The notes under the pieces were generated by a model that was given only the letters and a program-made list of their open reading frames with translations, ran no database searches and was not told the DNA's origin. From IMG/VR virus record IMGVR_UViG_2872698443_000004, positions 1 through 51,075 of that record: a stretch of 51,075 nucleotides of DNA; one strand, written 5' to 3'. The DNA comes from a virus. Its lineage: Duplodnaviria > Heunggongvirae > Uroviricota > Caudoviricetes. Shown here piece after piece: positions 6,413 through 51,075 of the stretch; position 1 is the first letter of the stretch; each line of letters begins with the position of its first letter. The position numbers and the translations under genes are program-made.

Positions 6413-6427
6413 GGTAATGACTCCAAC

Positions 6428-6931
6428 TTATTGATAGTGTTTTATGTTCAGATAATGCCCGATGACTTTGTCATGCAGCTCCACCGATTTTGAGAACGAC
6501 AGCGACTTCCGTCCCAGCCGTGCCAGGTGCTGCCTCAGATTCAGGTTATGCCGCTCAATTCGCTGCGTATATCGCTTGCTGATTACGTGCAGCTTTCCCT
6601 TCAGGCGGGATTCATACAGCGGCCAGCCATCCGTCATCCATATCACCACGTCAAAGGGTGACAGCAGGCTCATAAGACGCCCCAGCGTCGCCATAGTGCG
6701 TTCACCGAATACGTGCGCAACAACCGTCTTCCGGAGCCTGTCATACGCGTAAAACAGCCAGCGCTGGCGCGATTTAGCCCCGACATAGCCCCACTGTTCG
6801 TCCATTTCCGCGCAGACGATGACGTCACTGCCCGGCTGTATGCGCGAGGTTACCGACTGCGGCCTGAGTTTTTTAAGTGACGTAAAATCGTGTTGAGGCC
6901 AACGCCCATAATGCGGGCAGTTGCCCGGCAT
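6428..6931 (-). CDS. insB: IS1 transposase InsB
   Basis: 167-aa ORF inside IS1. Confidence 0.9.
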
Positions 6932-7125
6932 CCAACGCCATTCATGGCCATATCAATGATTTTCTGGTGCGTACCGGGTTGAGAAGCGGTGTAAGTGAAC
7001 TGCAGTTGCCATGTTTTACGGCAGTGAGAGCAGAGATAGCGCTGATGTCCGGCGGTGCTTTTGCCGTTACGCACCACCCCGTCAGTAGCTGAACAGGAGG
7101 GACAGCTGATAGAAACAGAAGCCAC
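6850..7125 (-). CDS. insA: IS1 protein InsA
   Basis: 91-aa ORF with CPSC...CSHC zinc motif inside IS1. Confidence 0.9.
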
Positions 7126-7180
7126 TGGAGCACCTCAAAAACACCATCATACACTAAATCAGTAAGTTGGCAGCATTACC

Positions 7181-7628
7181 CGATATCCTTTTTCTTGGCT
7201 TCAAGTTTTTGTTGCAATGCGCAGATTTCATCAAACCTTTTTGTTATTTCGTGTTCTGCGCTAAACATGCATTTATCTTCGTTCGGAGCAGGGAGCAATA
7301 TATCTTCGCCGTTGCCGTCTTTCCCATATGAAAGCCATCCAACCCTTCTGCCAGATACAGTCAGATAAATTGAAGTAGAACGAACATCGTATGAGTAAAA
7401 TGAACATCCCATCTTTTCAAGTTCTTCACTTATAGCTACCAACTTGGATGATAACTGATCCACTTCCTCAGTTTTCTTTTTACCGCCAAACGCAATAACT
7501 CTGGCGTCAAGTGCAAGCTGGTTCTTTAACTTTGTTACTTCTTCAAGTTCAGTGAAAACCCCAGACTTAATTAAAGCGTTACGAGCGATTTCCTCTTTCA
7601 TTCTCGTAGTTAAGCGGATTGATGACAT
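7181..7628 (-). pseudogene. N-terminal part of early-left gene interrupted by IS1
   Basis: Likely start ATG 7626-7628 with GAGG SD; frame runs into IS1 where a stop at 7176-7178 truncates it. Confidence 0.5.
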
Positions 7629-7693
7629 ATTAATTCCTCTCAAATAAGTGCTTTGCTGCCAAAACAATGAACCATCCGGAAATTCCAGATAGT

Positions 7694-7921
7694 TCATAAT
7701 TCACTCTTCAATACTTCCAACTTACTAATCGCCGATAGATATCCGCGCTGATAGGGCATCATCATTCCTTCGAGCTTGCCACTTCTTAACTCCTCCCTGA
7801 GCAATTGTATTGCTTGATCAATAACCTCTGCCTTAGCGTCCTTTATGGCTTGCTTGCGGGGCTTTGCTTTCTGCTTTGGCAGATTTCTCAAGCATGATGG
7901 AATGTATGTCTGATTCATCAC
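7694..7921 (-). CDS. Hypothetical protein downstream of N
   Basis: 75-aa ORF, GTG immediately after N stop, ATG one codon later. Confidence 0.4.
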   Translation of the reverse strand: MMNQTYIPSCLRNLPKQKAKPRKQAIKDAKAEVIDQAIQLLREELRSGKLEGMMMPYQRGYLSAISKLEVLKSEL

Positions 7922-8194
7922 TTACCTCGCCGTCAGTTGTTTTGATTTCCGGTATCCTGCCGCGTAAATGGCTACGTTTGGCAGGCAAATACTTCCACTG
8001 CATTCTTCTGCCTTCTTGCAGCGAAGGCTTCCGAGCGATGCTGCTTTGTCTGCTCTGACGCAACCAGAGAGCTTTAGCGCAATTTTTCGCGCCAGTGCTT
8101 CATTACTGCGTCGCTCGGCAATAAGTTCTGCTCTGCGAGCTTTGTAGCGGCTTTTTGCCGTACCTTTGGATTCTTTCCAGACAATGGTTACCAT
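7922..8194 (-). CDS. N: N-like transcription antitermination protein
   Basis: Arginine-rich N-terminus (GTAKSRYKARRAELIAERR); first gene downstream of pL and nutL; AAGGAG SD. Confidence 0.7.
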   Translation of the reverse strand: MVTIVWKESKGTAKSRYKARRAELIAERRSNEALARKIALKLSGCVRADKAASLGSLRCKKAEECSGSICLPNVAIYAAGYRKSKQLTAR

Positions 8195-8304
8195 GATGGT
8201 CTCCTTTAAGTGGCTTTGGCGCATGACGCGTCGAGGTGCTTATCTTCTCGATCGCTGTCTTGCAGCTGCAATTCGCGCCATCCCCAAAACCACTCAAGTT
8301 CTGG

Positions 8305-8345
8305 TCTCAACGGTTAGGTTGAGAGTCCGTCGATGTTAAAGAGCA
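8305..8345 (-). promoter_or_regulatory. nutL (boxB hairpin 8305-8324, boxA 8334-8344)
   Basis: Minus-strand GCTCTTTAACA then hairpin UCUCAAC-CUAACC-GUUGAGA between pL and N; boxA identical to nutR. Confidence 0.6.
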
Positions 8346-8391
8346 TGCCAATCTGTTCCGTTTGGCTTCCAGCGTCCTGCTGATGGCTTAA

Positions 8392-8419
8392 ATTTAAGAC
8401 TTCTTAATTTATTGGTCAA
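8392..8419 (-). promoter_or_regulatory. pL promoter with OL operator
   Basis: Minus-strand -35 TTGACC (8414-8419), 16-nt spacer, -10 TTAAAT (8392-8397); palindrome TTAAGACTTCTTAA at 8394-8407. Confidence 0.5.
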
Positions 8420-8483
8420 GTGTATTTTTGAAGAAAACTTAATTTTATGGGCGTGAATTTAGTTTGTCTTTGATTTTTAACGG

Positions 8484-8508
8484 GAAATAAAAAAGGGGCG
8501 AAAGCCCC
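8484..8508 (-). terminator. Rho-independent terminator after cI
   Basis: GGGGC-GAAA-GCCCC hairpin right after cI stop, U-tract on minus strand. Confidence 0.6.
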
Positions 8509-9159
8509 TTAAGGAAGGTTTGCTAGCTTGGCATCAACGACAACGCCAATGATTTTACAGTTCCCATTGATTTCAATCATTGGGTATTGTGGATTGAGTG
8601 GTTTCAGGAATTTTCTCCCGGCATCAATAACTAACTTTTTGAATGTCGCCTCGTTTTCTCCTTCAAGTTTGGCGACTACCAGCTTTCCATTACGTGGTTC
8701 GACTTCTGGGTCGACGAGAATAATCATCCCCTCAGGAATACTCAGTCCTGCCGGGGCAGTCATTGAGTCGCCTTTAACGTCGAGCCAAAAAGAGTCTTCA
8801 GAACAATCTACCGTTGTGTCGTACCAGTTATCTATTGCACGCCTATGATATGGCTCTACAGCTTCCATCCAACATCCTGCGCTTACCCAACTAATTAGAG
8901 GATACGAACCTCTTGGATCATGCCTGCTGTGATAGGCAATGTTTGAAAGACTATCCTCTCCTTTCAACAGGTAATCAGGGGAGCACTGCAAAGCCTTGGC
9001 TAAGGCCAATAGGTTTTCGCCATTGGGCTCAGTTTCAGATCGCTCCCATTGGGAAATAGCAACATTAGACACGCCAACCATCTTGCCAAGGGCAGCCTGC
9101 CTAATCTTGAGTTCTTTTCTGCGAGCGCGAATACGCTCACCCATCAGTTGTGTATTCAT
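8509..9159 (-). CDS. cI: CI repressor (HTH + S24 LexA-like autopeptidase)
   Basis: N-terminal XRE-type HTH; Ala-Gly cleavage site (VSAGCW); GDSM and VVAKL catalytic motifs; divergent from cro. Confidence 0.85.
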   Translation of the reverse strand: MNTQLMGERIRARRKELKIRQAALGKMVGVSNVAISQWERSETEPNGENLLALAKALQCSPDYLLKGEDSLSNIAYHSRHDPRGSYPLISWVSAGCWMEAVEPYHRRAIDNWYDTTVDCSEDSFWLDVKGDSMTAPAGLSIPEGMIILVDPEVEPRNGKLVVAKLEGENEATFKKLVIDAGRKFLKPLNPQYPMIEINGNCKIIGVVVDAKLANLP

Positions 9160-9239
9160 AGTTAAGACATCTTAAATAAACTTGACTTAAGATTCCTTTG
9201 GTGGATAATTTAAGTGTTCTTTAATTTCGGAGCGAGTCT
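9160..9239. promoter_or_regulatory. OR operators with divergent PR/PRM
   Basis: PR -35 TTGACT (9182-9187), 16-nt spacer, -10 GATAAT (9204-9209); palindrome TTAAGACATCTTAA (9162-9175) and related site around 9209-9224. Confidence 0.6.
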
Positions 9240-9425
9240 ATGTACAAAAAAGATGTTATTGACCACTTCGGAACCCAGCGTGCTGTTGCTAAAGCACTAG
9301 GCATTAGCGATGCAGCAGTCTCTCAGTGGAAAGAAGTTATCCCAGAGAAAGACGCCTATCGATTGGAAATCGTTACAGCTGGCGCCCTGAAGTATCAAGA
9401 AAGTGCTTACCGCCAAGCGGCATAA
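9240..9425 (+). CDS. cro: Cro repressor
   Basis: 61 aa, HTH QRAVAKALGISDAAVSQW; divergent from cI. Confidence 0.8.
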   Translation: MYKKDVIDHFGTQRAVAKALGISDAAVSQWKEVIPEKDAYRLEIVTAGALKYQESAYRQAA

Positions 9426-9432
9426 GCAAATT

Positions 9433-9473
9433 GCTCTTTAACAGTTCTGGCCTTTCACCTCTAACCGGGTGAG
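9433..9473 (+). promoter_or_regulatory. nutR (boxA 9433-9443, boxB hairpin 9454-9473)
   Basis: GCTCTTTAACA followed by hairpin UCACC-UCUAACC-GGUGA just after cro. Confidence 0.6.
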
Positions 9474-9540
9474 CAAACATCAGCGGCAAATCCATTGGGT
9501 GTGCCGCTATAACTCAATATCAATATAGGAAAATTAACAA

Positions 9541-9837
9541 ATGGCACAAGCAAGCTACAGCAAGCCAACACAGCGAGAAATTGATCGCGCTGAAACTGAT
9601 TTACTCATCAACCTGTCAACGCTTACCCAGCGCGGTCTGGCAAAGATGATTGGCTGTCATGAATCGAAGATAAGCAGAACGGACTGGAGATTTATTGCTT
9701 CGGTCTTGTGTGCTTTCGGAATGGCATCAGACATCAGTCCGATTAGCAGGGCTTTTAAGTATGCGCTTGATGAAATCACAAAGAAAAAATCCCCGGCCGC
9801 CACCGAGGATTTTAAGCAAATTGATATGCAATTCTGA
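9541..9837 (+). CDS. cII: CII-like transcriptional activator
   Basis: 98 aa; C-terminus KKKSPAATEDFKQIDMQF parallels lambda CII; HTH in middle. Confidence 0.75.
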   Translation: MAQASYSKPTQREIDRAETDLLINLSTLTQRGLAKMIGCHESKISRTDWRFIASVLCAFGMASDISPISRAFKYALDEITKKKSPAATEDFKQIDMQF

Positions 9838-9869
9838 GGGAATTACTGGATCAATCCACAGGAGTAATT

Positions 9870-10031
9870 ATGACAAAACGTCGTAAGAAATACCAGGAAA
9901 AAGAAGAGATTCGACACCCTGATTCACCTGAGGGATTAGTGGTAGCCGCAGCAAATAACAGGGCGTTCGCAGAGCGCCTTGTTGGTGTTTACAGACTAGC
10001 CAAAGCAGGAGTGAAACATGGGCGTCGTTAA
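9870..10031 (+). CDS. Small basic hypothetical protein (53 aa)
   Basis: AGGAG SD; stop overlaps start region of O; below ORF-track size cutoff. Confidence 0.4.
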   Translation: MTKRRKKYQEKEEIRHPDSPEGLVVAAANNRAFAERLVGVYRLAKAGVKHGRR

Positions 10032-10839
10032 GTTAGCTGATTACAGGCCTCAACTGGAGGTCGTGGAGCATCGCGTGGCAGATACCGAAGATGGTTTCAT
10101 GCGCGTTGCTAACGAGATTACCGACAGTCTGCTGATGGCTGATTTAACCGTCCGGCAGTTGAAGGTGATGCTCGCTATCATGCGCAAGACATACGGATTC
10201 AATAAGCCGATGGATCGACTCACAAACACGCAGATAGCAGCCATGACAGGTATTCATCACACTCATGTTTGCGCTGCCAAGCGCCAGCTTATTGAGCGTA
10301 AATTCCTCATTGCTGATGGCGTGAAAATCGGAGTGAACAAGGTGGTTTCTCAGTGGATTAGCCAGGACAGCTTAACATTAGCCAAAACAGCTAATAAAAC
10401 ATTAGCCAAGTCAGCTAATGGGTATAAGCCAAGTCAGCTAAACACAAAAGACAATATACAAAAGACAATAAATACAAATACCCCCTTACCCCCTAACGGG
10501 GGCGGCGATGGGCAGGTTAAACCTGAACGTCGCAAGGCAGAACGCATCGACTACGAATCCTTCCTGAACGCCTACAACACCGAAGTCGGTGACAGGCTGC
10601 CACACGCTGTTGCGGTCAACGAGAAACGCAAACGTCGCCTGAAGAAAATCATCCCGCAACTGAAAACGCCAAACGTGGACGGTTTCAGAGCGTATGTCAG
10701 GGCGTTTGTACATCAGGCCAAGCCGTTTTACTTCGGAGACAACGACACGGGCTGGACGGCCGATTTTGATTACCTGCTGAGGGAAGACTCGTTAACGGGA
10801 GTTCGGGAAGGGAAGTTTGCAGACAGGGGGATTGCATGA
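10018..10839 (+). CDS. O: Replication initiation protein O-like
   Basis: 273 aa; position after cII; iteron array inside its coding sequence; followed by helicase. Confidence 0.7.
10355..10485 (+). repeat. Origin iterons plus A-rich tract within O
   Basis: Four tandem ~18-20 bp repeats (TTAGCCAGGACAGCTTAA / TTAGCCAAAACAGCTAA / TTAGCCAAGTCAGCTAA / TAAGCCAAGTCAGCTAA) then A-rich 10441-10485. Confidence 0.6.
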
Positions 10840-12212
10840 GACAGGATATCGAAGCGAGCGTTATCGGTGGCCTGCTGATTGGTGGATTAACACCAACCGC
10901 CAGCGACGTTCTGGCAACGCTGGAGCCGGAGGCGTTTTCAATTCCGCTCTACAGAAAAGCCTTCGAGGTTATCCGGAAGCAGGCGCGAAACAGAAACCTC
11001 ATTGACGCGCTGATGGTTGCCGAGGAGTGCGGAGAGGAGCATTTCACGTCAATCCTGATGACCAGCAAAAACTGCCCGAGTGCCGCAAACCTGAAGGGAT
11101 ATGCCGGAATGGTCGCGGATAACTATCACCGCCGTCTGGTGCTGGAAATCATGGATGAAATGCGTGAACCAATTCAGAGCGGAACCATCGACGCATCGAG
11201 TCAGGCGATGGATGAGCTTGTAAAGCGTCTCTCAGCCATCAGAAAGCCCCGTGACGAGGTTAAACCTGTACGGTTAGGGGAAATCATCACTGACTACACC
11301 GACACGCTTGACAGGCGTCTGAGGAACGGAGAAGAGTCAGATACCCTGAAGACCGGAATCGAAGAACTTGACGCCATCACCGGAGGGATGAACGCAGAAG
11401 ACCTTGTGATAATCGCTGCTCGTCCTGGTATGGGGAAAACCGAACTGGCGCTGAAGATTTCCGAAGGCGTTGCAAGCCGCGTTATTCCTGGTTCTGACGT
11501 CCGGCGCGGGGTATTGATTTTCTCAATGGAAATGAGCGCATTGCAGATTGCAGAGCGAAGCATTGCCAACGCCGGGAGGATGTCGGTTAGTGTGCTGCGA
11601 AATCCTGCAGCGATGGATGACGAAGGCTGGGCACGTGTTGCTAACGGCATGAGTCAGCTTGCAGATTTGGATGTATGGGTTGTCGATGCCTCGCGGTTAT
11701 CGGTCGAAGAAATACGCTCAATCGCAGAACGGCACAAACAGGAAAACCCAAACCTGTCACTCATCATGGCGGATTATCTTGGCCTGATTGAGAAGCCGAA
11801 AGCAGACCGCAACGACCTTGCAATTGCTCACATCTCCGGAAGCCTGAAGGCGATGGCGAAGGACCTGAAAACGCCTGTTATCTCCCTGAGTCAGCTTTCG
11901 CGCGATGTTGAGAAGCGACCAAACAAACGCCCGACAAACGCAGATTTGCGTGATTCAGGAAGCATTGAACAGGACGCAGACTCAATCATCATGCTCTATC
12001 GGGAAGCGGTATATGACGAGAACAGTAGCGCCGCGCCATTTGCTGAAATCATCGTGACGAAAAACCGTTTTGGCTCGCTTGGTACGGTTTACCAGCGGTT
12101 CTGTAACGGACACTTTGTTGCATGTAACCAGGATGAAGCCAGACAGATTTGCACAGCATCAAATGCACCTGCTGCGCGTGGCAGACGATATGCACAAGGG
12201 GCGGACGTATGA
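10836..12212 (+). CDS. Replicative DNA helicase (DnaB family)
   Basis: 458 aa; Walker A (ARPGMGKTE), DnaB-type motifs; start overlaps O stop. Confidence 0.85.
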
Positions 12213-12238
12213 CCATCTACATCACTGAGCTAATAACA

Positions 12239-12266
12239 GGCCTGCTGGTAATCGCAGGCCTTTTTA
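12239..12266 (+). terminator. Rho-independent terminator after helicase (tR2-like)
   Basis: GGCCTGC-TGGTAATC-GCAGGCC hairpin followed by TTTTT. Confidence 0.55.
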
Positions 12267-12607
12267 TTTGGGGGAGAGGGAATTGTGGCTGACTGGTAAA
12301 TTCCAATCATCATTCTTGCCGGAGCTTCGCTGGTTTCTGGCTTTATCCTGCTGAAAAAGCATAAAGACCGTGATCAAAAAGTCGAAGTTCTCTATGGGTA
12401 TCCAGCGAACAGCACAACATGGCTGACCATTTACCACTACCGAAAATCAGGACGCTGGGTATTCGAATGGGATGATCTGTTCGCTGAAAAGCGACCAAAG
12501 TCATGGGGAGACATCAGCGAATGCATGATGTTTGAAGAAAGAAAATCCGGCGCAACCCGAGAAGAGTTTAACGAAGCGTGGGCGCGATTAAGTGAGAGAG
12601 GGTATTT

Positions 12608-12808
12608 GTGAGCAAGTACGAAAAATTAGATCAAAACATTCTTTCAATGCTGAGTGAAAGACCAACACCTGTTTTTGATATCTGGCTTAAATGGCGGAGC
12701 AATGGAATGTATATCGAAACCATCGATCGCCGTATGCAATACCTGAGAAAGAAAGGGCTTGTTGCAAATGTGCGTGGGAAGGGTTGGGTGAAAATTAACC
12801 TGTCATAA
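12608..12808 (+). CDS. Hypothetical small protein
   Basis: 66 aa, GTG start. Confidence 0.4.
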   Translation: MSKYEKLDQNILSMLSERPTPVFDIWLKWRSNGMYIETIDRRMQYLRKKGLVANVRGKGWVKINLS

Positions 12809-12819
12809 CGGGGATTGAT

Positions 12820-13092
12820 ATGGACGAATCAAGAAAGCAGTTTTTGGAGTTCGCGAAAAAGCAAAATTTAAGCCTTGCATATGGTGATTGCGGGTATGTT
12901 TATTCATCCACGGAAATGGCATGGAGGGCATGGCAGGCATCTCGCGCAGCTATCGAGATTGAGTGTCCTGGAAAAAGAGAGCGTGAGGCATTTTCTACCG
13001 ATTTCGAGGATGGGGTCACATTTGGTTATAACGACGCAATTAGTGAATGCGAAGGACGGATTCGCGCTGCTGGAGTCAAAGTGAAGGAGTAA
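12820..13092 (+). CDS. Hypothetical nin-region protein
   Basis: 90 aa ORF. Confidence 0.45.
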   Translation: MDESRKQFLEFAKKQNLSLAYGDCGYVYSSTEMAWRAWQASRAAIEIECPGKREREAFSTDFEDGVTFGYNDAISECEGRIRAAGVKVKE

Positions 13093-13094
13093 CG

Positions 13095-13541
13095 ATGAAG
13101 CAAATATACATGCTTCGCAACGAAGAAATCAGAAACAACGCCATAGACGCAATACTCTCACTTCCCATCGACGACAAGTCACCTCACGAAGTCCACGTTA
13201 GAGAACCCAAACGCAGCAAAGCGCAGAATGACCGTATGTGGCCGATGCTGAACGATGTTTCGCGTCAGGTGCTATGGCATGGTCAACGGCTGGCACCGGA
13301 AGACTGGAAAGACCTGTTCACTGCCCTGTGGCTTAAGACCAAAAAACTGGAGCAACGAAGTGTGCCTGGTATCGACGGTGGCGTTGTCATGCTTGGCGTG
13401 CGTACCAGCAAAATGCGAAAGGCCAGCATGACTGAGCTTATCGAAATCATGTTCTGGTTCGGCTCAGAGCGCAACGTGCGGTGGAGTGATGACTCCCGGC
13501 GAGAGTATGAATGGTCACAACGAAAAGGTAGGGCTGCATGA
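13095..13541 (+). CDS. ninB: NinB recombination protein
   Basis: Start trimmed to ATG 13095 with AAGGAG SD; DQN...DVSRQV.WHG...KWSD motifs as recalled for lambda NinB. Confidence 0.8.
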   Translation: MKQIYMLRNEEIRNNAIDAILSLPIDDKSPHEVHVREPKRSKAQNDRMWPMLNDVSRQVLWHGQRLAPEDWKDLFTALWLKTKKLEQRSVPGIDGGVVMLGVRTSKMRKASMTELIEIMFWFGSERNVRWSDDSRREYEWSQRKGRAA

Positions 13542-14065
13542 CTATCAAATCAAATACGCCAGCACACGACAAGGACTGCTGGCAAACGCCGCTTTGGCTT
13601 TTTGATGCACTGGATATTGAGTTTGGATTCTGGCTGGATTCGGCAGCGAGCGACAAAAATGCTCTGTGCGCTCACTGGTTAACTGAGGCCGACGACGCGC
13701 TCAATTCTGAGTGGGTAAGCCACGGTGCAATATGGAATAACCCACCGTACAGCAATATCAGGCCGTGGGTGGAAAAAGCCGCTGAGCAGTGCATACAACA
13801 GCGACAGACGGTAGTTATGCTTGTGCCAGAGGATATGTCAGTCGGATGGTTCAGCAAGGCTCTGGAGAGTGTCGACGAAGTTCGCATTATCACTGATGGA
13901 CGGATTAATTTTATCGAACCATCGACAGGGCTGGAGAAGAAGGGAAACAGCAAAGGCTCCATGCTGCTGATTTGGCGACCGTTCATCAGTCCTCGACGGA
14001 TGTTTACTACCGTATCCAAAGCGGCATTGATGGCGATCGGGCAGGGCGTCAGGAGGGCGGCATGA
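13538..14065 (+). CDS. Phage DNA N6-adenine methyltransferase
   Basis: NPPY catalytic motif ([10 protein letters not shown]); 175 aa; nin region. Confidence 0.8.
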
Positions 14066-14244
14066 GGCGACAGCGACGAAGTATCACCGACATAATCTGC
14101 GAAAACTGCAAATACCTTCCAACGAAACGCTCCAGAAATAAACGCAAGCCAATCCCAAAAGAATCTGACGTAAAAACCTTCAATTACACAGCTCACCTGT
14201 GGGATATCCGGTGGCTAAGACATCGTGCGAGGAATACAAGGTGA
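14062..14244 (+). CDS. ninE: NinE protein
   Basis: [20 protein letters not shown]... matches recalled lambda NinE; ATGA overlap with upstream stop. Confidence 0.75.
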
Positions 14245-14411
14245 TTGACCCAAATCGAAGTTACGAACAAGAAAGCGTCGAGCGGGCTTTAACGTGCGCT
14301 AATTGCGGTCAGAAGCTGCATGTGCTGGAAGTTCACGTATGTGAGCACTGCTGCGCAGAACTGATGAGCGATCCGAATAGCTCAATGTACGAGGAAGAAG
14401 ACGATGAATGA
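14241..14411 (+). CDS. ninF: NinF protein
   Basis: GTG start with GAGGAA SD; [28 protein letters not shown] matches recalled lambda NinF. Confidence 0.7.
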
Positions 14412-15126: not shown

Positions 15127-15416
15127 TGGCTAATCTACGCAAAGAAGCACGCGGCAGAGAATGCCAGGTACGTATTTACGGCGTATGCAATGGCAACCCT
15201 GAAACTACAGTTCTGGCACATTACCGGATGGCTGGAATTTGCGGAACGGGAATGAAACCTGACGACCTGATCGGAGCATGGGCTTGTAGCGCGTGTCACG
15301 ATGAAATCGACCGACGCACCCATAACCTCGACAACAAAGACGCCAGACTTTACCACCTCGAAGGCGTGATCAGGACGCAGGCGATACTGCTGGAGGAGGG
15401 GAAGATTAAGCCATGA
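15126..15416 (+). CDS. YbcO-like (DUF1364) nin-region protein
   Basis: 96 aa with conserved Cys/His; directly upstream of rusA as in DLP12. Confidence 0.55.
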   Translation: MANLRKEARGRECQVRIYGVCNGNPETTVLAHYRMAGICGTGMKPDDLIGAWACSACHDEIDRRTHNLDNKDARLYHLEGVIRTQAILLEEGKIKP

Positions 15417-16445: not shown

Positions 16446-16448
16446 AAC

Positions 16449-16535: not shown

Positions 16536-16536
16536 T

Positions 16537-42677: not shown

Positions 42678-42795
42678 CCTTTCTTTTGCAGCAGACTGGC
42701 AGGAGTGCGAGTCTGCTCGCATAATCAACACTCATTCCTTGTGGTTTTAATATTGCAACTATACTGTATATAAAAACAGTGTTAATGGAGGCGTC

Positions 42796-43269
42796 ATGAA
42801 CTACGAGATTAAGCAGGAAGAGAAACGTACCGTTGCAGGTTTCCATCTCGTTGGCCCGTGGGAACAGACGGTAAAGAAAGGCTTTGAGCAGTTGATGATG
42901 TGGGTAGATAGTAAAAATATTGTGCCGAAGGAGTGGGTTGCTGTCTATTACGACAATCCAGATGAAACACCCGCCGAAAAATTACGCTGCGGCACCGTCG
43001 TGACGGTGCCGGGTTACTTTACGCTTCCCGAAAACAGTGAGGGCGTCATTCTGACAGAAATTTCAGGTGGTCAGTATGCGGTGGCGGTAGCTCGTGTAGT
43101 CGGTGATGATTTTGCTAAACCCTGGTATCAGTTCTTTAATAGCCTCTTGCAGGACAGTGCTTATGAAATGTTACCAAAGCCCTGCTTCGAGGTTTACTTG
43201 AACAATGGCGCGGAAGATGGGTACTGGGATATCGAAATGTATGTTGCGGTGCAGCCAAAACATCACTAA
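42796..43269 (+). CDS. sbmC: DNA gyrase inhibitor SbmC (GyrI)
   Basis: 157 aa, GGAGG SD; matches recalled SbmC. Confidence 0.85.
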
Positions 43270-43466
43270 TTCATCTCAGGGCGGTGTGTTAACGCGATGA
43301 CCACTCTTTTTTTGAAAGCGAAAAGAGTAAGATGCGCCTTTCAAATTTTTCGCTCCTGCCGGGAAATTACACTGTTCCCGGTATGTCCGTCGGATAATTC
43401 AGAGGCGCGCCTTCTGGCCGACAGATGAGTTATGAGCGCTTTTAATCTTCATTACGGAGTTTCTGC

Positions 43467-44525
43467 GTGCGTGCCGATAAGTCATTAAGCCCGTTTGAAA
43501 TCCGGGTATACCGCCATTACCGCATTGTGCATGGTACTCGGGTCGCGCTGGCATTCCTGCTCACTTTTCTCATTATCCGCCTGTTTACTATCCCGGAAAG
43601 CACCTGGCCGCTGGTCACCATGGTGGTGATTATGGGGCCAATCTCGTTCTGGGGTAACGTTGTCCCTCGCGCCTTCGAACGTATTGGCGGTACGGTGTTG
43701 GGTTCGATTTTGGGTCTTATCGCTCTGCAACTGGAGTTAATTTCGTTACCGCTGATGTTAGTCTGGTGCGCGGCGGCGATGTTTCTTTGCGGTTGGCTGG
43801 CGCTGGGCAAGAAACCGTATCAAGGATTATTGATTGGGGTGACGCTGGCAATTGTTGTTGGTTCCCCGACAGGTGAAATTGATACGGCGTTATGGCGAAG
43901 CGGCGATGTGATCCTCGGCTCTTTACTGGCAATGTTGTTTACCGGTATCTGGCCACAACGGGCGTTCATCCACTGGCGCATTCAACTGGCGAAAAGTCTG
44001 ACCGAGTATAATCGGGTCTATCAATCTGCATTCTCACCGAACTTACTCGAACGCCCACGTCTGGAAAGCCATCTACAAAAACTCTTGACCGATGCCGTGA
44101 AAATGCGTGGGCTGATTGCGCCCGCCAGCAAAGAAACTCGTATTCCAAAATCGATATATGAAGGTATCCAGACCATTAATCGCAATCTGGTTTGTATGCT
44201 GGAGTTGCAAATCAATGCATACTGGGCCACGCGCCCCAGCCATTTCGTGTTATTGAACGCGCAAAAACTTCGTGATACCCAGCATATGATGCAGCAAATA
44301 CTGCTGAGCCTTGTTCATGCGCTGTACGAAGGTAATCCGCAGCCGGTTTTTGCCAATACGGAAAAATTGAACGATGCTGTGGAAGAGCTGCGTCAGTTGC
44401 TGAATAACCACCATGACCTGAAGGTTGTGGAAACACCAATCTATGGTTATGTGTGGCTGAACATGGAAACGGCACATCAGCTTGAGTTGCTATCGAATCT
44501 GATTTGCCGGGCCTTGCGCAAATAA
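43467..44525 (+). CDS. yeeA: Inner membrane protein YeeA
   Basis: 352 aa multi-TM; GTG start with GGAG SD; synteny sbmC-yeeA-yeeX. Confidence 0.8.
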   Translation: MRADKSLSPFEIRVYRHYRIVHGTRVALAFLLTFLIIRLFTIPESTWPLVTMVVIMGPISFWGNVVPRAFERIGGTVLGSILGLIALQLELISLPLMLVWCAAAMFLCGWLALGKKPYQGLLIGVTLAIVVGSPTGEIDTALWRSGDVILGSLLAMLFTGIWPQRAFIHWRIQLAKSLTEYNRVYQSAFSPNLLERPRLESHLQKLLTDAVKMRGLIAPASKETRIPKSIYEGIQTINRNLVCMLELQINAYWATRPSHFVLLNAQKLRDTQHMMQQILLSLVHALYEGNPQPVFANTEKLNDAVEELRQLLNNHHDLKVVETPIYGYVWLNMETAHQLELLSNLICRALRK

Positions 44526-44696
44526 TTCCTGAACTTCAGAATCATCTTGCTGCTGCTTCGATTCAGCAAGGATAAAGGGTATGATAGTGAAAAGGGATAA
44601 AAGCATTGTCATCTGCGGCAGCTATGAGTAATGTTGGCCCTAACGAATAGCGGTTGCTTAAACGAATCCGACTCTCACATTATCAGGGGTATAAAA

Positions 44697-45026
44697 ATGG
44701 AAACTACCAAGCCTTCATTCCAGGACGTACTGGAATTTGTTCGTCTGTTCCGTCGTAAGAACAAACTGCAACGTGAAATTCAGGACGTTGAGAAAAAGAT
44801 TCGTGACAACCAGAAGCGCGTCCTGTTGCTGGACAACCTGAGCGATTACATCAAGCCGGGGATGAGCGTTGAAGCAATCCAGGGCATCATCGCCAGCATG
44901 AAAGGTGACTATGAAGATCGCGTTGACGATTACATCATCAAAAATGCCGAGCTCTCCAAAGAACGCCGCGATATCTCCAAAAAGCTGAAAGCTATGGGCG
45001 AAATGAAAAACGGCGAAGCGAAGTAA
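44697..45026 (+). CDS. yeeX: YeeX (UPF0265 family)
   Basis: 109 aa from ATG 44697; downstream hairpin GAGGGTTGCC-CG-GCAACCCTC. Confidence 0.8.
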
Positions 45027-45923: not shown

Positions 45924-46118
45924 TTACAGCAACTGGTGAGGGCTGGCATAAGTTGCCGGTGTTTCGGTAGAGTCACGGTCATCCACCACGCGGAGTGAAT
46001 AACCTTTTTCAGCGGCCTTATTAATCAGTTCAGTGATATTAACACCATCAATGTCAACGACAATGTGCCCCATATCCAGCGCCTGTACGTTAACGCTGTC
46101 GGCTTCCAGTGTCATCAT
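45924..46118 (-). CDS. yeeW: YeeW-like protein
   Basis: 64 aa; start overlaps cbtA stop (ATGA). Confidence 0.75.
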   Translation of the reverse strand: MMTLEADSVNVQALDMGHIVVDIDGVNITELINKAAEKGYSLRVVDDRDSTETPATYASPHQLL

Positions 46119-46488
46119 TTCGCCTCCGGATACTTACCCAGGGTAATGTTATTTACCGTTCTGTAATTGTCGCGGGTCATCAGGCCGGTCGCCCTGCGAG
46201 CCCGGAGGATATCGATGCTGTTTATTAACTGAGAGCGGGTACAGGCGCTGAATCCCGGCTGGTCGGTAGCACCAGCGCGTATTTTTCCACGAGAAAGTTC
46301 ACCGCATCACACAGTGAAATGCCTGCCTCAATATGCTGCTCAATCACACGTTCATCGGCAAAAGGTGTGTCATTCAGTGTGAGGCCATAGTGCTGGTCCA
46401 GCAGTCGGGACAGCAGTATCTGCCAGATTTCAACAGGAGACGGGCGAGAACTGGTCGCCTGCCCGGGTAATACAGGTAATGTTTTCAT
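46115..46488 (-). pseudogene. cbtA: CbtA (YeeV) toxin gene, frameshifted
   Basis: N-terminal 73 aa read normally then 14 out-of-frame codons to a stop at 46225; recognisable C-terminus continues in another frame down to 46115. Confidence 0.7.
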
Positions 46489-46576
46489 ACTGAAGATTTT
46501 CCTGATATGCAGATATAAAAATGGAAAAGTGGCGTGGTGAAAACACCAGGCCGTAGCAGAAGGCTATTCTGGAGAG

Positions 46577-46945
46577 TTAATTTTTCATTTCGGGCGTCGG
46601 ATAAACAGCCAGATAAACGTAACCACAACTGCTGAGGGTATCGGCTTTGCAGGTCAGCCCTTTTGCATACAGCGTGACGGTATGCTGATGGCGGGGATTC
46701 AGTTCACCGCTGGTGAGCATGAGTTCCAGTTGTTTCATCAGCAGCGGAAAGGCCTGGTCCAGGTGGTACGCATCTGCATCGCTGAACAGGCCTCTGATAC
46801 CGGCGCGGTCGGCAAGGTAATGCAACCGGTTACCCTCCTGCACCAGACGTGCCCCGAAACAGGGCGTCACGGTGCAGGGCAGCCCCCACCAGGGGCGGTC
46901 GTGATTGTCGTCGGGAAGTGTTGTCCCGGGGAGTGTGTCTGACAC
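46577..46945 (-). CDS. cbeA: CbeA (YeeU) antitoxin
   Basis: 122 aa, intact. Confidence 0.85.
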   Translation of the reverse strand: MSDTLPGTTLPDDNHDRPWWGLPCTVTPCFGARLVQEGNRLHYLADRAGIRGLFSDADAYHLDQAFPLLMKQLELMLTSGELNPRHQHTVTLYAKGLTCKADTLSSCGYVYLAVYPTPEMKN

Positions 46946-47018
46946 GATAAAATCCTTACAGAAAATCGGCTAAGAATGGTCCGGTAGTGGCGATAATTCT
47001 GCTCATCAGAATTCCCAC

Positions 47019-47240
47019 TCAGTTCAGGGTGACGCTCATCAGCCGGACATACGGACCAAAACTGTCCTTACGGCGTTCAGCAAACACGGCCAGCACACCG
47101 GGAATATCCTGCACTTCACGACCGGTATACGCTTCAGCACTGCCGTGCCAGCGGTATTTACCGGTACAGAACGGAAAAAGACGGGATGTCGGATGTTGTT
47201 GGTGAATACGCATGGCTTCACCACGGGTGATAATTTTCAT
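47019..47240 (-). CDS. yeeT: YeeT-like protein
   Basis: 73 aa, synteny. Confidence 0.75.
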   Translation of the reverse strand: MKIITRGEAMRIHQQHPTSRLFPFCTGKYRWHGSAEAYTGREVQDIPGVLAVFAERRKDSFGPYVRLMSVTLN

Positions 47241-47302
47241 AATGGGATACCTCTGAAGACAGAAGATAAAAGTGAAAACAGGTGTGATGTGGTTGTGAAG
47301 GG

Positions 47303-47794
47303 TTAAAGCAGACCATGTTCGGCAAAGGAGAAAACCTGGTTGCCACCGACTATCAGATGGTCCGGCACCCGGATATCCACCAGGCCCAGTGCCTGTACCA
47401 GACGTTCCGTGATAAGGCGGTCTGCCTTACTGGGTGTGACTTCACCGGAGGGGTGATTGTGTGCCAGCACCACGGCAGCGGCATTGTGGTACAGGGCGCG
47501 TTTAATCACTTCCCGGGGATGGACTTCCGTGCGGTTGATGGTGCCGGTAAAGAGGGTTTCACCGGCAATCAGTTGATTCTGGTTATTCAGATACAGCACC
47601 CGGAATTCTTCACGCTCCAGTCCCGCCATGTTCAGAATCAGCCATTCCCGTGCTGCACGGGTGGAGGTGAAGGCCACGCCGGGTTCATGAAGATGGCGGT
47701 CCAGGGTTTTCAGGGCCCGTTGAATGAGGCTGCGCTCGCCGGGCGTCATCTCTCCGGGCAGAAAGGAAAGTTGTTGCATTGTGCTTCTCTCCAT
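47303..47794 (-). CDS. yeeS: RadC-like JAB-domain protein (YeeS)
   Basis: HNHPSG JAMM motif; start may be the internal Met (MQQLSF). Confidence 0.8.
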   Translation of the reverse strand: MERSTMQQLSFLPGEMTPGERSLIQRALKTLDRHLHEPGVAFTSTRAAREWLILNMAGLEREEFRVLYLNNQNQLIAGETLFTGTINRTEVHPREVIKRALYHNAAAVVLAHNHPSGEVTPSKADRLITERLVQALGLVDIRVPDHLIVGGNQVFSFAEHGLL

Positions 47795-48274
47795 TCAGTC
47801 GATGATGCGCATAATGGCGCTGCATTCCGGATGCTGCAGGGCGTAATCCCGCAACCGGTAATAATGGACCGTCATGGCATAATTCTCCGTACGACAGGCA
47901 TGATGACTGTACGTCATCAGACAGGCGGCAATACCGGCGGCTTCCGGGCTCATTTCTGCGCGGTTACCGTTCATGGCATTGAACAGTACCCATGTTTCGT
48001 CATCATCGTCATCCGGTTCGGGTGCCATAAATGCCCCGCCGTTGTTCAGGGTGTACAGATTCCAGATACCACCGCAGTAGTCTTCGCACAGACGGTCCAT
48101 CCAGCCGAAGACACGGGGCTCCAGGGTCACCCACTGTGGAATGAGGCCAAAATGCTGCGGCCAGAAGCTGATGCGCTGTTCATCAGGGACGAGGCTGGCA
48201 ACCAACTGAGGCGGATTATTCTCTGGTGTTGTAGCTGAATAAATTGTGGGGGTATTCTGAGAAACGGTTTTCAT
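47795..48274 (-). CDS. Antirestriction protein (KlcA/ArdB-like)
   Basis: 159 aa with acidic patch EPDDDDDE; usual position upstream of radC-like gene. Confidence 0.65.
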   Translation of the reverse strand: MKTVSQNTPTIYSATTPENNPPQLVASLVPDEQRISFWPQHFGLIPQWVTLEPRVFGWMDRLCEDYCGGIWNLYTLNNGGAFMAPEPDDDDDETWVLFNAMNGNRAEMSPEAAGIAACLMTYSHHACRTENYAMTVHYYRLRDYALQHPECSAIMRIID

Positions 48275-48355
48275 GAGATAACTCCTTAAATAACAAATAA
48301 ATGTGTGTTTTTCAGGAACGAAAGCTGAATGATTCCCTCACTCAGGGAAACGGCA

Positions 48356-49177
48356 TCAGCGCAGGCTCTCCAGCATCGTTTCTGCCATCACCCACAATGC
48401 GCGATTGAGCTTAATGTCGGTATCAATGCTGTGAATGGCCCGGGTATGGATACGTTTTCCTTTTGCACTGCGACCGGAAATCCCGCCTTTCAGCATATTC
48501 TCCTGGATGGTCTGATATGCGCTCCACAGGTCCTTACCGTAATCCTCCCGGCGTCGCGGCGTCAGAATGTCGGCGGTGGTGACGGGCTGATGTTCGTCAC
48601 CATAACGGTAAGTCAGTGCCGCCTGTGCCAGCGCCTGGCGTGCCGGTGGCGGCAGGACCAGCGACTGCATGGCATCACGCTTCTCCTCTATCCGGTCAAA
48701 CACGCCCACCACCTCGTAAGCCCCTTCGATAACTTTCTCCACTACATTTCCCCGGTGTGGAACACGCACTTCCCCCAGAGACTGGCCACAGACGCACCCG
48801 TTCTGGCAGACGAACCTGAAGTAACCCGGCAGCATCTGGTAGCTGGAGGTACCGTCATGAGAGTTGAGCAGAATAATTTCAGGGACATGTTCTCCGTTTA
48901 TCTCTCCGGCCCGCCGCAGACGCAGCATGTGTTTTGTGTATCCCCGGCGGCCCGGGTCGCGCACACGGGTCTGGCAGGCGAAGAACGGCTGAAAGCCTTC
49001 CCGCTGCAGATTTTCCAGGACGGTAATGGTGGGAATGTACGCATACCGTTCACTGCGGGAGGTGTGCCGGTCTTCCCCAAAAATACTGGGTACATGGCGT
49101 ATCAGTTCTTCATGTGTCAGCGGACGGTCACGGCGTATCTGGTTTGCAGCATAACCAAAACGACTTGCTAATCGCAT
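48356..49177 (-). CDS. DUF932-like protein
   Basis: 273 aa; synteny with antirestriction/radC cluster. Confidence 0.6.
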   Translation of the reverse strand: MRLASRFGYAANQIRRDRPLTHEELIRHVPSIFGEDRHTSRSERYAYIPTITVLENLQREGFQPFFACQTRVRDPGRRGYTKHMLRLRRAGEINGEHVPEIILLNSHDGTSSYQMLPGYFRFVCQNGCVCGQSLGEVRVPHRGNVVEKVIEGAYEVVGVFDRIEEKRDAMQSLVLPPPARQALAQAALTYRYGDEHQPVTTADILTPRRREDYGKDLWSAYQTIQENMLKGGISGRSAKGKRIHTRAIHSIDTDIKLNRALWVMAETMLESLR

Positions 49178-49221
49178 ACTTTGCTCCTTATCGGTGGTTA
49201 AGATTTACTGGTGCAATAAAT

Positions 49222-49254
49222 GAAAAAAGCCGCGTCTCCCGGAGAAGACGCGGC
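49222..49254 (-). terminator. Rho-independent terminator (minus strand)
   Basis: GCCGCGTCT-CCCGGAGA-AGACGCGGC hairpin with U-tract on minus strand; downstream of secreted-protein operon. Confidence 0.45.
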
Positions 49255-49397
49255 CTGACGGGTGAAATGAATAAGGTTTATTGTCTGAGAGGCCTTTCAC
49301 TGGCGAGCCACGCATTAAGCGGCTTTCCGGTAACAATGGCTGGGGCTGTATTTACCTTTGATATTAATAATGTGCAGAGAAACGCATGGTTTACTCC

Positions 49398-49808
49398 TTA
49401 GATTTTAAGTTTGTCCTGGGCTACAACGACAGGTTTTCCGGATGTGTCGATGACTCCTACCGTCGGTACGCCATTTTTGATTTCGAAGAACGGTTTGTTG
49501 CTACCTGAGCACAGTTGATTGTCCCCGTATTCAATCATTTGTGCTTTCCCGGTTTTCAGGTTAACTACCGAGACAGTGTAGTCGTAGCACCAGGCACCAC
49601 CACGTTCAAGCACGAAAACATAGCTGTTATCTTTATAGTTGAACTGATTCTTTGTCTGGCAATTCATACCGTCAATTTCGGTACAGGAAAACGCTTCTGT
49701 AGTATTAACGTATTTGATGTTATTTGGCAGTTTTACTTGTTTCGCAGTAGCGAAGACAGAGAACAGAATAGTTACAGCAACGAGTAAAGTTTTGATAAAA
49801 GTTTTCAT
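49398..49808 (-). CDS. Hypothetical secreted protein (136 aa)
   Basis: Signal peptide MKTFIKTLLVAVTILFSVFATA; four Cys; AT-rich. Confidence 0.55.
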   Translation of the reverse strand: MKTFIKTLLVAVTILFSVFATAKQVKLPNNIKYVNTTEAFSCTEIDGMNCQTKNQFNYKDNSYVFVLERGGAWCYDYTVSVVNLKTGKAQMIEYGDNQLCSGSNKPFFEIKNGVPTVGVIDTSGKPVVVAQDKLKI

Positions 49809-49823
49809 GATAGACTCCTTAAA

Positions 49824-50312
49824 TTAGTTAACCGCAGCTACGTAGTTTTTCACCAGATACGCGAATTCATGCACGCCAATTTCACCGAACCAAACCAGGT
49901 AGGCCGGGTCATCTAAACCAAAGTAACGGTAGCCAACAACTTCATGGGTTTTTGGGTTATAGAGTGTTACGATAAAGTCCCAGCCGCAGGTATTGGCTTT
50001 GCAACCGTCGCCCTGGAACCAGACTGTACCGTTAATGTTTACTGGCGTGATACCTCCACCAGGGCCATCCATATAGCCGCCTTTACCGAACATGCCGCTC
50101 AGTCCGACCGGTTTTAATGCTTTGTCGATAGCGGCTTTGTAGGTAGCGTCACCTTCGTACAACTCGTACGTTGATGGACACGCTCCAGGTTGTTCAGCCC
50201 AGGCTTCCGGGTTACAACTAAGAGCTTGTTTTACGGTAGCCGCTTCTGCGTTAAAGTTAAAGCCCGTGAACAGAACCGCCAGAAATAACATAAGGGTATG
50301 TAAACGTTTCAT
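49824..50312 (-). CDS. Hypothetical secreted protein (162 aa)
   Basis: Signal peptide MKRLHTLMLFLAVLFTGFNFNAEA; Gly-rich, several Cys; AT-rich. Confidence 0.55.
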   Translation of the reverse strand: MKRLHTLMLFLAVLFTGFNFNAEAATVKQALSCNPEAWAEQPGACPSTYELYEGDATYKAAIDKALKPVGLSGMFGKGGYMDGPGGGITPVNINGTVWFQGDGCKANTCGWDFIVTLYNPKTHEVVGYRYFGLDDPAYLVWFGEIGVHEFAYLVKNYVAAVN

Positions 50313-50614
50313 TGTAAATATTCTTCCGTTGTAAATGGCGCTGGAAAATTTCTCATCAGTGAAACCTTCCGGAAGTTTCCCCCCTTGTATGATGTATATC
50401 GCCAGTATTTTATTTCATCCCGGCTGTGATTTTTATATTCCCCGGCACGTGCAATAACGCTGACCAGAGATATAAGGCTCATTAATAACTTTACAGGTAA
50501 TTTCATAATTAAATTTCCAGTGAGTGAATTGACAGGTGAGGGGTAAAACTTTCTCTCAGGTAATATATATCTGAAAATATTTTCAATAACACCAGACAGG
50601 AAAAACACCACCAC
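50309..50614 (-). CDS. Hypothetical small protein
   Basis: 101-aa ORF overlapping start of downstream gene; internal Met MKLPVKLLMSLISLVSVIA may be true start; weak SD. Confidence 0.3.
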   Translation of the reverse strand: MVVFFLSGVIENIFRYILPERKFYPSPVNSLTGNLIMKLPVKLLMSLISLVSVIARAGEYKNHSRDEIKYWRYTSYKGGNFRKVSLMRNFPAPFTTEEYLQ

Positions 50615-50682
50615 AGGCGGTGGCGTTTCTTTGGGGCGTCTTTATTTAATCCGGGCCATCGCGTTTCTCAGTGCCAAATCTG

Positions 50683-51075
50683 GGTAATGACTCCAACTTA
50701 TTGATAGTGTTTTATGTTCAGATAATGCCCGATGACTTTGTCATGCAGCTCCACCGATTTTGAGAACGACAGCGACTTCCGTCCCAGCCGTGCCAGGTGC
50801 TGCCTCAGATTCAGGTTATGCCGCTCAATTCGCTGCGTATATCGCTTGCTGATTACGTGCAGCTTTCCCTTCAGGCGGGATTCATACAGCGGCCAGCCAT
50901 CCGTCATCCATATCACCACGTCAAAGGGTGACAGCAGGCTCATAAGACGCCCCAGCGTCGCCATAGTGCGTTCACCGAATACGTGCGCAACAACCGTCTT
51001 CCGGAGCCTGTCATACGCGTAAAACAGCCAGCGCTGGCGCGATTTAGCCCCGACATAGCCCCACTGTTCGTCCAT
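50683..51075 (-). mobile_element. IS1, second copy (partial, runs off window end)
   Basis: Same terminal repeat and sequence identical to first copy over 393 bp; same orientation. Confidence 0.9.
50698..51075 (-). CDS. insB: IS1 transposase InsB (truncated by window end)
   Basis: Identical to InsB C-terminal 125 aa of first copy. Confidence 0.85.

Follow-up and report, generated by a model that had tools for sequence, protein, structure and literature searches.

IS1, as known from the IS1A form of E. coli and plasmid R100, is a 768-bp element with terminal inverted repeats whose insA and insB′ frames are joined by a −1 frameshift at an A6C motif and whose insertion leaves a 9-bp target duplication. 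Composites bounded by direct IS1 repeats are known, Tn9 among them. The IS1-flanked r-determinant of R100/NR1, Tn9 and the argF segment of E. coli K-12 are units of 2.6–23 kb for which movement or amplification has been demonstrated; in each, direct IS1 copies surround a dispensable segment, which can undergo circle excision, amplification or pickup by homologous recombination. In the long-term evolution experiment with E. coli, recombination between IS copies accounted for about 70% of 110 large rearrangements, with deletions of up to ∼55 kbp and prophage DNA strongly over-represented (PMC4173774); deletions between same-orientation IS1 copies are documented in that work (Raeside 2014, PMC4173774). 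IS copies that lack a target duplication have been attributed to IS-IS recombination or to adjacent deletion (PMC11708052).

Geometry and identity of the IS1 pair

The window, by which we mean the whole 51,075-nt stretch of DNA that was analyzed, was described in an earlier note as carrying two identical IS1 copies in the same orientation around 43.5 kb, and both the coordinates and the identity proved exact. Copy 1 is a complete element of 768 bp (6413–7180). Copy 2 (50683–51075) lies on the same strand and is identical to the first 393 bp of copy 1 at 393 of 393 positions, with 0 mismatches. The copies are 44,270 bp apart from start to start and enclose 43,502 bp of DNA. A perfect repeat of 393 bp cannot have arisen by chance. 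The shared identity ends precisely at the IS boundary, with 0 bp shared further to the left, and on this ground we rejected a larger segmental duplication; at a length of at least 40 nt, the window contains no other long repeats besides the IS1 family.

The window does not reach the last 375 bp of copy 2 or the flank to the right of it, and we inferred their state from relatives. In S163-2, the closest genome, which is identical across the copy-2 junction, copy 2 is full length (L001 9685–10452) and matches copy 1 at 768 of 768 positions; in 19SZHZ886Rt, the coordinates imply a full-length copy like that of S163-2. The pair has the repeat arrangement of an IS-bounded, deletion-prone interval, with direct repeats of long perfect homology, over 393 bp in the window and over 768 bp by way of S163-2. 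The chromosomes of the nearest relatives each hold at least 39–40 places that match IS1, and a pair at such spacing is unremarkable in an IS1-rich lineage.

The copies do not share a history: copy 1 is a fresh insertion in a prophage, and copy 2 is an old deletion scar. The best joint explanation, to which we assign a probability of roughly 0.87, is that separate IS1A events, on an IS1-rich E. coli chromosome of commensal type with many IS1A copies, produced a recent copy 1 and an older scar at copy 2, and that the interval between them can recombine and is no transposon. The features on which this reading draws are collected in Table 1.

Table 1. Positions of the IS1 copies and of the prophage and chromosomal features in and beside the bracketed interval.
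Feature	Position	Strand	Remarks
Target-site duplication, left 9 bp CGATATCCT	6404..6412	.	same 9-mer on both sides of copy 1
IS1 copy 1 (IS1A type), complete	6413..7180	-	IRR at 6413, IRL at 7180
Target-site duplication, right 9 bp CGATATCCT	7181..7189	.	same 9-mer on both sides
insA of copy 1	6850-7125	-	91-aa InsA
insB frame of copy 1	6428-6931	-	
A6C frameshift motif of copy 1	6868-6874		IS position 307
Nmad5-family gene, prophage pL operon, split by copy 1	6228..7628	-	5′ part 7181-7628, 3′ part 6228-6412
SEN34-like lambdoid myovirus prophage, part between the IS1 copies	7181..41286	+	
N-type antiterminator gene	7922..8224	-	Pfam N_peptide 4e-17; pL operon, upstream of IS1, inside bracket
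cI-type repressor (HTH + S24 peptidase)	8509..9159	-	inside bracket; LexA family protein by S163-2 annotation
Prophage replication genes	10018-12212		
Prophage Q	15957-16445		
Prophage tRNA-Asn/Thr	16537-16692		
Prophage lysis genes	16935-18152		
Prophage terminase to tail-fibre assembly	19553-40801		
YafO-family toxin gene, intact	35887-36303		inside interval
attR core CGTAATCGTGAAA	41274..41286	.	also at attL beside sbcB in S163-2
Chromosomal genes dacD to tmaR/yeeX, as a block	41511..45026	+	annotation transferred from S163-2
dacD	41511-42677		annotation transferred from S163-2
sbmC	42796-43269		annotation transferred from S163-2
yeeA	43467-44525		annotation transferred from S163-2
tmaR/yeeX	44697-45026		annotation transferred from S163-2
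CP4-44-like islet remnant	45924..50614	-	yeeW, cbtA, cbeA, yeeT, yeeS, antirestriction gene, DUF932 gene, two hypothetical genes
cbtA toxin gene, frameshifted	46115-46488	-	
cbeA	46577-46945	-	
IS1 copy 2, first 393 bp from IRR, to window end	50683..51075	-	left flank CCAAATCTG

IS1 copy 1 and the prophage that holds it

Copy 1 conforms to the IS1 family in length (∼768 bp) and in its termini, where the family has imperfect inverted repeats of ∼23 bp (GGTAATG...) and copy 1 has the imperfect pair GGTAATGACTCCAACTTA / GGTAATGCTGCCAACTTA. It encodes insA and insB′, joined by the −1 frameshift at A6C. The NCBIfam profile transpos_IS1 is matched at profile positions 1–81 in InsA and 75–199 in the InsB frame; each half falls under the whole-protein NCBIfam cut-off, as is expected for a split gene. 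The transposase frames run leftward, in the direction of pL transcription. Over its entire length (768/768) copy 1 is identical to an element of S163-2 that is annotated as “IS1-like element IS1A family transposase.” The element itself is no different from IS1A, and only its insertion site is new.

A simple insertion of IS1 duplicates 8–9 bp of its target, and copy 1 is flanked by a perfect 9-bp duplication. In S163-2 the same site is empty, with flanks that are 100% identical and a single copy of the 9-mer; window positions 6412 and 7181 map there to overlapping reference positions (11052/11044), so that the two flanks are contiguous. The occupied site was absent from all 5,426 complete E. 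coli genomes, among which the best match was the empty site (73% coverage). The exact 40-nt pattern of the left junction had no match in IMG/VR or in JGI metagenome contigs, and there was no exact-sequence record for either of two start variants of the truncated Nmad5-IS1 read-through ORF. To the right of the prophage, the window is identical to S163-2 from 41296 to 50682 save for one 1-nt indel, and this identity over 9.4 kb indicates that copy 1 arrived after this genome and its near-clonal relative had separated. Copy 1 is a simple transposition of very recent date and a strain-private marker, with an insertion site that is new among the 5,426 genomes. The accessory gene that it interrupts, at about codon 150 of 207, belongs to the Nmad5 family (the intact 207-aa homologue in S163-2 matches Pfam Nmad5 at 2.3e-71) and is inactivated by the insertion.

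An insertion seen in no other genome, in a lineage with this many IS1 matches per chromosome, could also reflect an assembly artefact, with one copy misplaced, because misjoins arise most often at repeats of this kind. However, copy 1 shows both junctions and a textbook 9-bp duplication at an otherwise contiguous site, which a misjoin would not make, and the copy-2 junction is found with exactly this sequence in four independent complete genomes. We regard an artefact as highly improbable.

The prophage is integrated at sbcB/dacD, at the 5′ end of sbcB, and its integrase falls just beyond the window. The attR core, which was found by a longest-common-substring search, marks the start of homology to the prophage-free strain W2-5. 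The order N, cI, cro, cII, replication, nin, Q and lysis, together with the terminal att repeats, identifies the prophage as lambdoid. Its late module (19553–40801) is 94% identical to Escherichia phage vB_EcoM-606R2 over 82% of its length and 83% identical to Salmonella phage SEN34, described in PMC5261728, over 79%. As in these two lambdoid myoviruses, the early region here is lambdoid; unlike them, this prophage carries an IS1. S163-2 has a P22-like prophage at this att site whose early region is nearly identical (99.6–99.8%) to the one here, and the present prophage is therefore a mosaic.

IS1 copy 2 and the eroded island

The second copy has a different character. Its junction is common to at least four genomes. 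The earlier note had proposed checking the right flank of this copy for a target duplication, and there is none: the left flank is CCAAATCTG and the right flank, read in S163-2, is CGGTCCGTG. In W2-5 the left flank runs on into a patatin-like gene; in BL21 the right flank leads into a TonB-receptor fragment. Since copy 2 lacks a target duplication and joins regions that lie far apart in other strains, it has the appearance of an IS1-associated deletion scar. From its junctions we take copy 2 to be the product of deletion or recombination rather than of simple insertion, and to be the older, lineage-shared member of the pair. Judged by the relatives, it is expected to extend to 51450 and to be followed by CGGTCCGTGGAAAACGG.

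The deletion would have taken the interior of a CP4-44-like island, including the patatin, RdcB and dynamin genes and genes beyond them, and would have joined the islet to the cobU-proximal backbone. We sought the right flank of copy 2 in W2-5 in order to size the loss and found no match within 52 kb, owing to an island in W2-5 that is much larger and different; BL21 served for the right side in its place. Related strains display differing, progressively larger losses on either side of the IS1 at this spot, and their IS1 alleles there vary by 0–20 mismatches. Roughly 10 strains have an IS1 at the boundary of the islet and cobU. They may reflect nested adjacent deletions from a single ancestral IS1 or, since the alleles differ between strains, independent events at this spot. 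IS1 has eroded the CP4-44-like island in this lineage.

Copy 2 resembles the scars described previously (PMC11708052) in that it is without a duplication and bridges regions that are separate in other strains. It differs from them in that no original simple insertion was recovered for it. CT30 and similar strains were considered as keepers of that insertion and were rejected, as their IS1 lies elsewhere, inside a neighbouring gene. For annotation, copy 1 can serve as a strain-private marker, while copy 2 should be recorded as a scar rather than as an insertion.

Fate of the bracketed interval

The earlier note had also considered the segment potentially mobilisable as a composite unit, a suggestion that neither the flanks nor the interior support. 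Under such a scheme, the IS1 pair together with the enclosed DNA would form a very large Tn9-like composite transposon, moved or movable via its outer ends. Both of these ends are intact (for copy 1 the IRR at 6413, for copy 2 the IRL as seen in relatives), and the IS1 encodes intact insA/insB′. However, the 9-bp duplication on both of its own sides indicates that copy 1 inserted alone, into continuous prophage DNA. The outer flanks of the supposed unit, CGATATCCT and CGGTCCGTG, differ, where transposition of the whole would have left one duplication around it. The interior has a standard order in strains without either IS1; the arrangement sbcB, prophage, dacD, sbmC, yeeA, tmaR, islet and cobU is, apart from the prophage, the normal chromosomal order of prophage-free strains. 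A mobile unit should recur in multiple contexts, and the block was not found elsewhere in the 5,426 genomes, IMG/VR or JGI metagenomes. Chandler, Clerget and Galas reportedly found in 1982 that the transposition frequency of IS1-flanked units drops steeply with length, a dependence that would leave a 45-kb unit practically immobile. A composite transposon is therefore exceedingly improbable; the 44-kb segment is no transposon, nor did it arrive in one piece. Unlike the r-determinant, Tn9 and argF units, it is 44 kb long, chromosomal and syntenic, its IS1 copies were acquired in separate events, and it showed no movement.

In the preferred reading of two separate IS1A events, the interval is nevertheless a substrate for recombination. 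The copies are identical direct repeats, through which host recombination could delete the DNA between them, as the earlier note had proposed. Its account of the chromosomal content (dacD-sbmC-yeeA-yeeX and cbeA/cbtA) was right, but its statement that the late half of the prophage would be lost was not. The bracket holds ∼34.1 of the ∼41.9 kb of the prophage (∼80%), comprising N, pL/oL, cI, cro, cII, the replication genes, nin, Q, the tRNAs, lysis, all morphogenesis genes and attR; only int/xis and the early-left recombination, kil and cIII genes lie outside and would stay after a deletion. Homologous (RecA-type) recombination of the host could loop out a circle of 44,270 bp and leave one IS1 behind, and this would delete ∼80% of the prophage together with dacD, sbmC, yeeA, tmaR and the islet. 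Unequal sister exchange could instead duplicate the interval. The four chromosomal genes are probably dispensable, as they are in knockouts of E. coli K-12.

Among the 5,426 E. coli genomes we found no deletion variant of the kind the earlier note had suggested looking for, and no left flank joined directly to IS1; nor were deletion, duplication or circle junctions observed in those genomes, in IMG/VR, in JGI metagenomes or in exact-ORF look-ups. Since only this genome carries copy 1, none of the sequenced relatives could have lost the interval by this route. The instability of the interval is thus potential only. The setting is similar to that of experimental evolution in E. coli B (PMC4173774), where same-orientation IS1 copies gave deletions of 8–55 kb, compared with an interval of 44 kb here, and where prophage and horizontally acquired DNA was lost preferentially, compared here with a prophage, an island and four genes of non-core function. 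Unlike in that study, where deletions were observed, the substrate alone is present here and the deletion product was not found. Deletability of an IS1 pair is an already known mechanism, routine in an IS1-rich strain, and our results leave the current understanding of IS1 and of IS-mediated genome plasticity unchallenged. Flagging the 44-kb interval as a possible site of loss or amplification during culture is of modest practical value.

The looped-out 44.27-kb circle might itself be a lytic-competent, lambda-bio-like specialized transducing genome that replicates and is perhaps packaged after induction. By coordinates, it would hold pL/oL, N, cI, cro, cII, the replication genes, nin, Q, lysis, the small and large terminase genes and all structural genes, and would be without only int/xis and the early-left accessory genes. 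It would also carry 9.4 kb of host DNA (dacD, sbmC, yeeA, tmaR, cbeA and the antirestriction and DUF932 genes), with the islet genes downstream of IS1 and co-directional with pL. Related free phages measure 40.7–42.7 kb, and at 44,270 bp the circle would amount to ∼106% of the ∼41.9-kb native phage. However, this length may exceed the packaging capacity, IS1-IS1 recombination is rarer than normal Int/Xis excision, and the proposal is purely inferential. We consider a transducing circle very unlikely; if it did form, the IS1 pair would give dacD-sbmC-yeeA-tmaR-cbeA a route of horizontal transfer.

Protection of the interval by CbtA/CbeA was rejected because the cbtA toxin gene is frameshifted. 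The YafO-family toxin gene is intact and, if it is part of an active toxin-antitoxin pair, could select against loss of the interval.

The IS1 pair and the predicted effect of recombination

Scanning the whole window for repeats of at least 40 nt returned IS1 as the sole family. Base-by-base comparison confirmed that, as an earlier note on this DNA had claimed, there are two identical, directly oriented copies; the first 393 bp of copy 1 align to the visible part of copy 2 on the same strand without mismatch (393/393), and identity ends exactly at the element boundary. The copies start 44,270 bp apart and enclose 43,502 bp. The element has terminal inverted repeats of IS1 type (GGTAATGACTCCAACTTA / GGTAATGCTGCCAACTTA), and an identical element is annotated as IS1A in RefSeq. 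Copy 1 carries a 91-aa insA, an insB frame and the A6C frameshift motif, and both frames match the NCBIfam IS1 transposase model (profile positions 1–81 and 75–199).

A crossover between these direct repeats would retain one IS1 and lose the start-to-start interval; unequal sister exchange would duplicate it instead. The predicted loss comprises 34.1 kb of prophage (N, pL/oL, cI, cro, cII, replication, nin, Q, lysis, all structural genes and attR) and 9.4 kb of chromosome, while int/xis and the early-left genes would stay, without their promoter. The earlier note described this as deletion of the prophage’s “late half.” The mechanism is documented, but the extent was understated, because ~80% of the ~41.9-kb phage lies inside the bracket. 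In the long-term evolution experiment, where same-orientation IS1–IS1 deletions were described, IS–IS recombination was behind ~70% of 110 large rearrangements, with deletions of up to ~55 kbp and an over-representation of prophage DNA (P = 3e-21) (PMC4173774). The pseudogene state of cbtA bears on viability after loss of the interval, and the intact YafO-family toxin gene might counter such loss. The corresponding IS1 × IS1 circle is predicted to hold all lytic phage functions plus the chromosomal DNA, resembling a lambda-bio-type transducing genome; we consider this reading very improbable. The circle would be ~106% of native genome length and may exceed capsid capacity.

Origins of the two copies

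Copy 1 arose by a recent simple insertion. A perfect 9-bp target duplication, CGATATCCT, stands on both sides of the element, which interrupts an Nmad5-family gene near codon 150 of 207. The window is E. coli chromosome, and among complete genomes strain S163-2 (NZ_CP058709.1) is its closest relative; there the gene is uninterrupted and the flanks of the site are 100% identical. The chromosome nearby is nearly the same in both strains (one 1-nt indel is the sole difference across 41296–50682), so the insertion is younger than the split from this near-clonal relative. Across 5,426 complete E. coli genomes the occupied site was not covered by any record, exact-sequence look-ups of the truncated Nmad5 ORF found none on record, and the exact 40-nt junction had no match in IMG/VR and JGI metagenomes.

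Copy 2 is an old deletion scar. Its junction sequence (49000–51075) was found 100% identical in four complete genomes. Beyond the window’s end it is neither truncated nor diverged in S163-2, where the full-length element, at L001 9685–10452, is identical to copy 1 (768/768), and coordinates imply the same copy in strain 19SZHZ886Rt. The earlier note had proposed looking for a target duplication at its right flank; the flanks, CCAAATCTG and CGGTCCGTG (the right one read in S163-2), differ. In strain W2-5 the left flank continues into a patatin-like gene and then RdcB, dynamin-family and GTPase genes, and in BL21 the right flank continues leftwards into a TonB-receptor fragment ~1.4 kb from cobU. 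Thus, this IS1 joins two points lying apart in other strains. BL12, H9Ecoli and HCP8S3_I1 also carry a same-orientation IS1 at the boundary between cobU and the islet (a CP4-44-like remnant), none with a duplication. The strain pattern fits a published account in which duplication-less IS copies arise by IS–IS recombination or by adjacent deletions growing over time (PMC11708052).

This boundary (50424–50682 and beyond) is an IS1 hotspot. Each of four strains has one same-orientation IS1 there, with all left (4/4) and right (4/4) junctions distinct, distinct alleles and no target duplication; in a fifth, CT30, a different IS1 is a simple insertion in the neighbouring gene and the island interior is intact. 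The hotspot could reflect nested adjacent deletions, or else independent events that recurred there.

The suggestion that the segment is mobilisable as a composite unit was not supported. As to origin, a composite transposon is rejected on the strength of copy 1’s own duplication, the differing outer flanks and the interior, whose gene order is the universal one (sbcB-dacD-sbmC-yeeA-tmaR-islet-cobU). As to capacity, units bracketed by IS1 transpose much less often the longer they are. IS1-containing queries found at least 39–40 matching places per chromosome in relatives. By our own arithmetic, ~40 copies on 4.6 Mb give a mean spacing of ~115 kb, and random placement would yield about a dozen neighbouring pairs within 44 kb, half of them direct. 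The pair is not special; it is the ordinary result of IS1 abundance, one fresh insertion plus one old deletion scar, and the structure is already known in kind.

Prophage and islet

Features of the window and of compared strains (L001 and L003, pieces of S163-2; L008–L011, pieces of other strains)
Feature	Position	Strand	Remarks
IS1 copy 1	6413-7180	- (transposase strand)	768 bp, complete
IS1 copy 2, visible part	50683-51075	same as copy 1	window ends inside copy
IS1 hotspot	L001 9685-10452; L008 46372-47139; L009 4143-4910; L010 3927-4694; L011 3697-4394
Left IS1 junctions, window-equivalent	BL12 50641; H9Ecoli 50484; HCP8S3_I1 50424
Right IS1 junctions			bp further towards cobU: BL12 448; H9Ecoli 883; HCP8S3_I1 873
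IS1 allele differences			bases: BL12 8; H9Ecoli 4; HCP8S3_I1 20
pL operon		leftward	N-type antiterminator, small ORF, Nmad5-family gene, TolA-like gene, cIII, kil, recombination genes, xis
N-type antiterminator	7922-8224	leftward	pL operon; Pfam 4e-17
cI	8509-9159		right of pL operon
Right of cI			cro, cII, replication genes, nin region, Q, tRNA-Asn + tRNA-Thr, lysis genes, 21-kb morphogenesis module
tRNA-Asn(GTT) + tRNA-Thr(TGT)	16537-16692	+	phage-borne; directly downstream of Q antiterminator gene
Rha / ORF11CD3-domain regulatory gene	18181-18870	+	between lysis cassette and small terminase
192-aa ORF + YafO-family gene	35307-36303	+	between baseplate genes
YafO-family toxin gene	35887-36303	+	intact; Pfam 4e-17; baseplate cluster
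att core CGTAATCGTGAAA	41274-41286; L003 1493-1505
Right of attR			dacD, sbmC, yeeA, tmaR/yeeX, islet, IS1 copy 2
CP4-44-like islet			yeeW, frameshifted cbtA, cbeA, yeeT, yeeS, antirestriction gene, DUF932 gene, two hypothetical genes
cbtA toxin gene	46115-46488	-	87-aa ORF instead of intact toxin ORF
cbeA antitoxin gene	46577-46945		intact
Hypothetical gene	49824-50614	-	split into 162-aa + 101-aa ORFs

A prophage is integrated at the 5′ end of sbcB, and the window begins just past its integrase gene. The att core lies within the first codons of sbcB. Integration gives exonuclease I a replacement N-terminus; the enzyme has 475 aa in S163-2, a lysogen, and 476 aa in prophage-free strains. The morphogenesis module, with small terminase, DUF1073 portal, DUF2213, DUF3383 and baseplate J genes, shares 94% identity with Escherichia phage vB_EcoM-606R2 and 83% with Salmonella phage SEN34, which is lambdoid and has myovirus morphology (PMC5261728). 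The early region (3405–17831) shares 99.6–99.8% identity with the S163-2 prophage, whose late module is P22-like, unlike the SEN34-like one here; both prophages are therefore mosaics. The two near-clonal chromosomes hold, at the same att site, unrelated late modules, of a myovirus here and a podovirus in S163-2. The segment that differs (17832–41121 versus the S163-2 pieces L003/L004) has its left breakpoint in the lysis cassette and its right one ~150 bp before attR. The stretch 17832–19552 matches neither S163-2 nor H9Ecoli, save for a 214-bp S163-2 match at 18986–19199. The 192-aa ORF preceding the YafO-family gene has no family match; the two genes, also present together in H9Ecoli, resemble a moron that possibly acts as a toxin-antitoxin pair or in defence.

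In the islet, cbtA is annotated in the same pseudogene state in S163-2, W2-5, H9Ecoli and CT30. The split hypothetical gene encodes 227 aa in S163-2, relative to which the window has a 1-nt deletion near 50378 that causes the split; the gene is also annotated as frameshifted in W2-5 and BL12.
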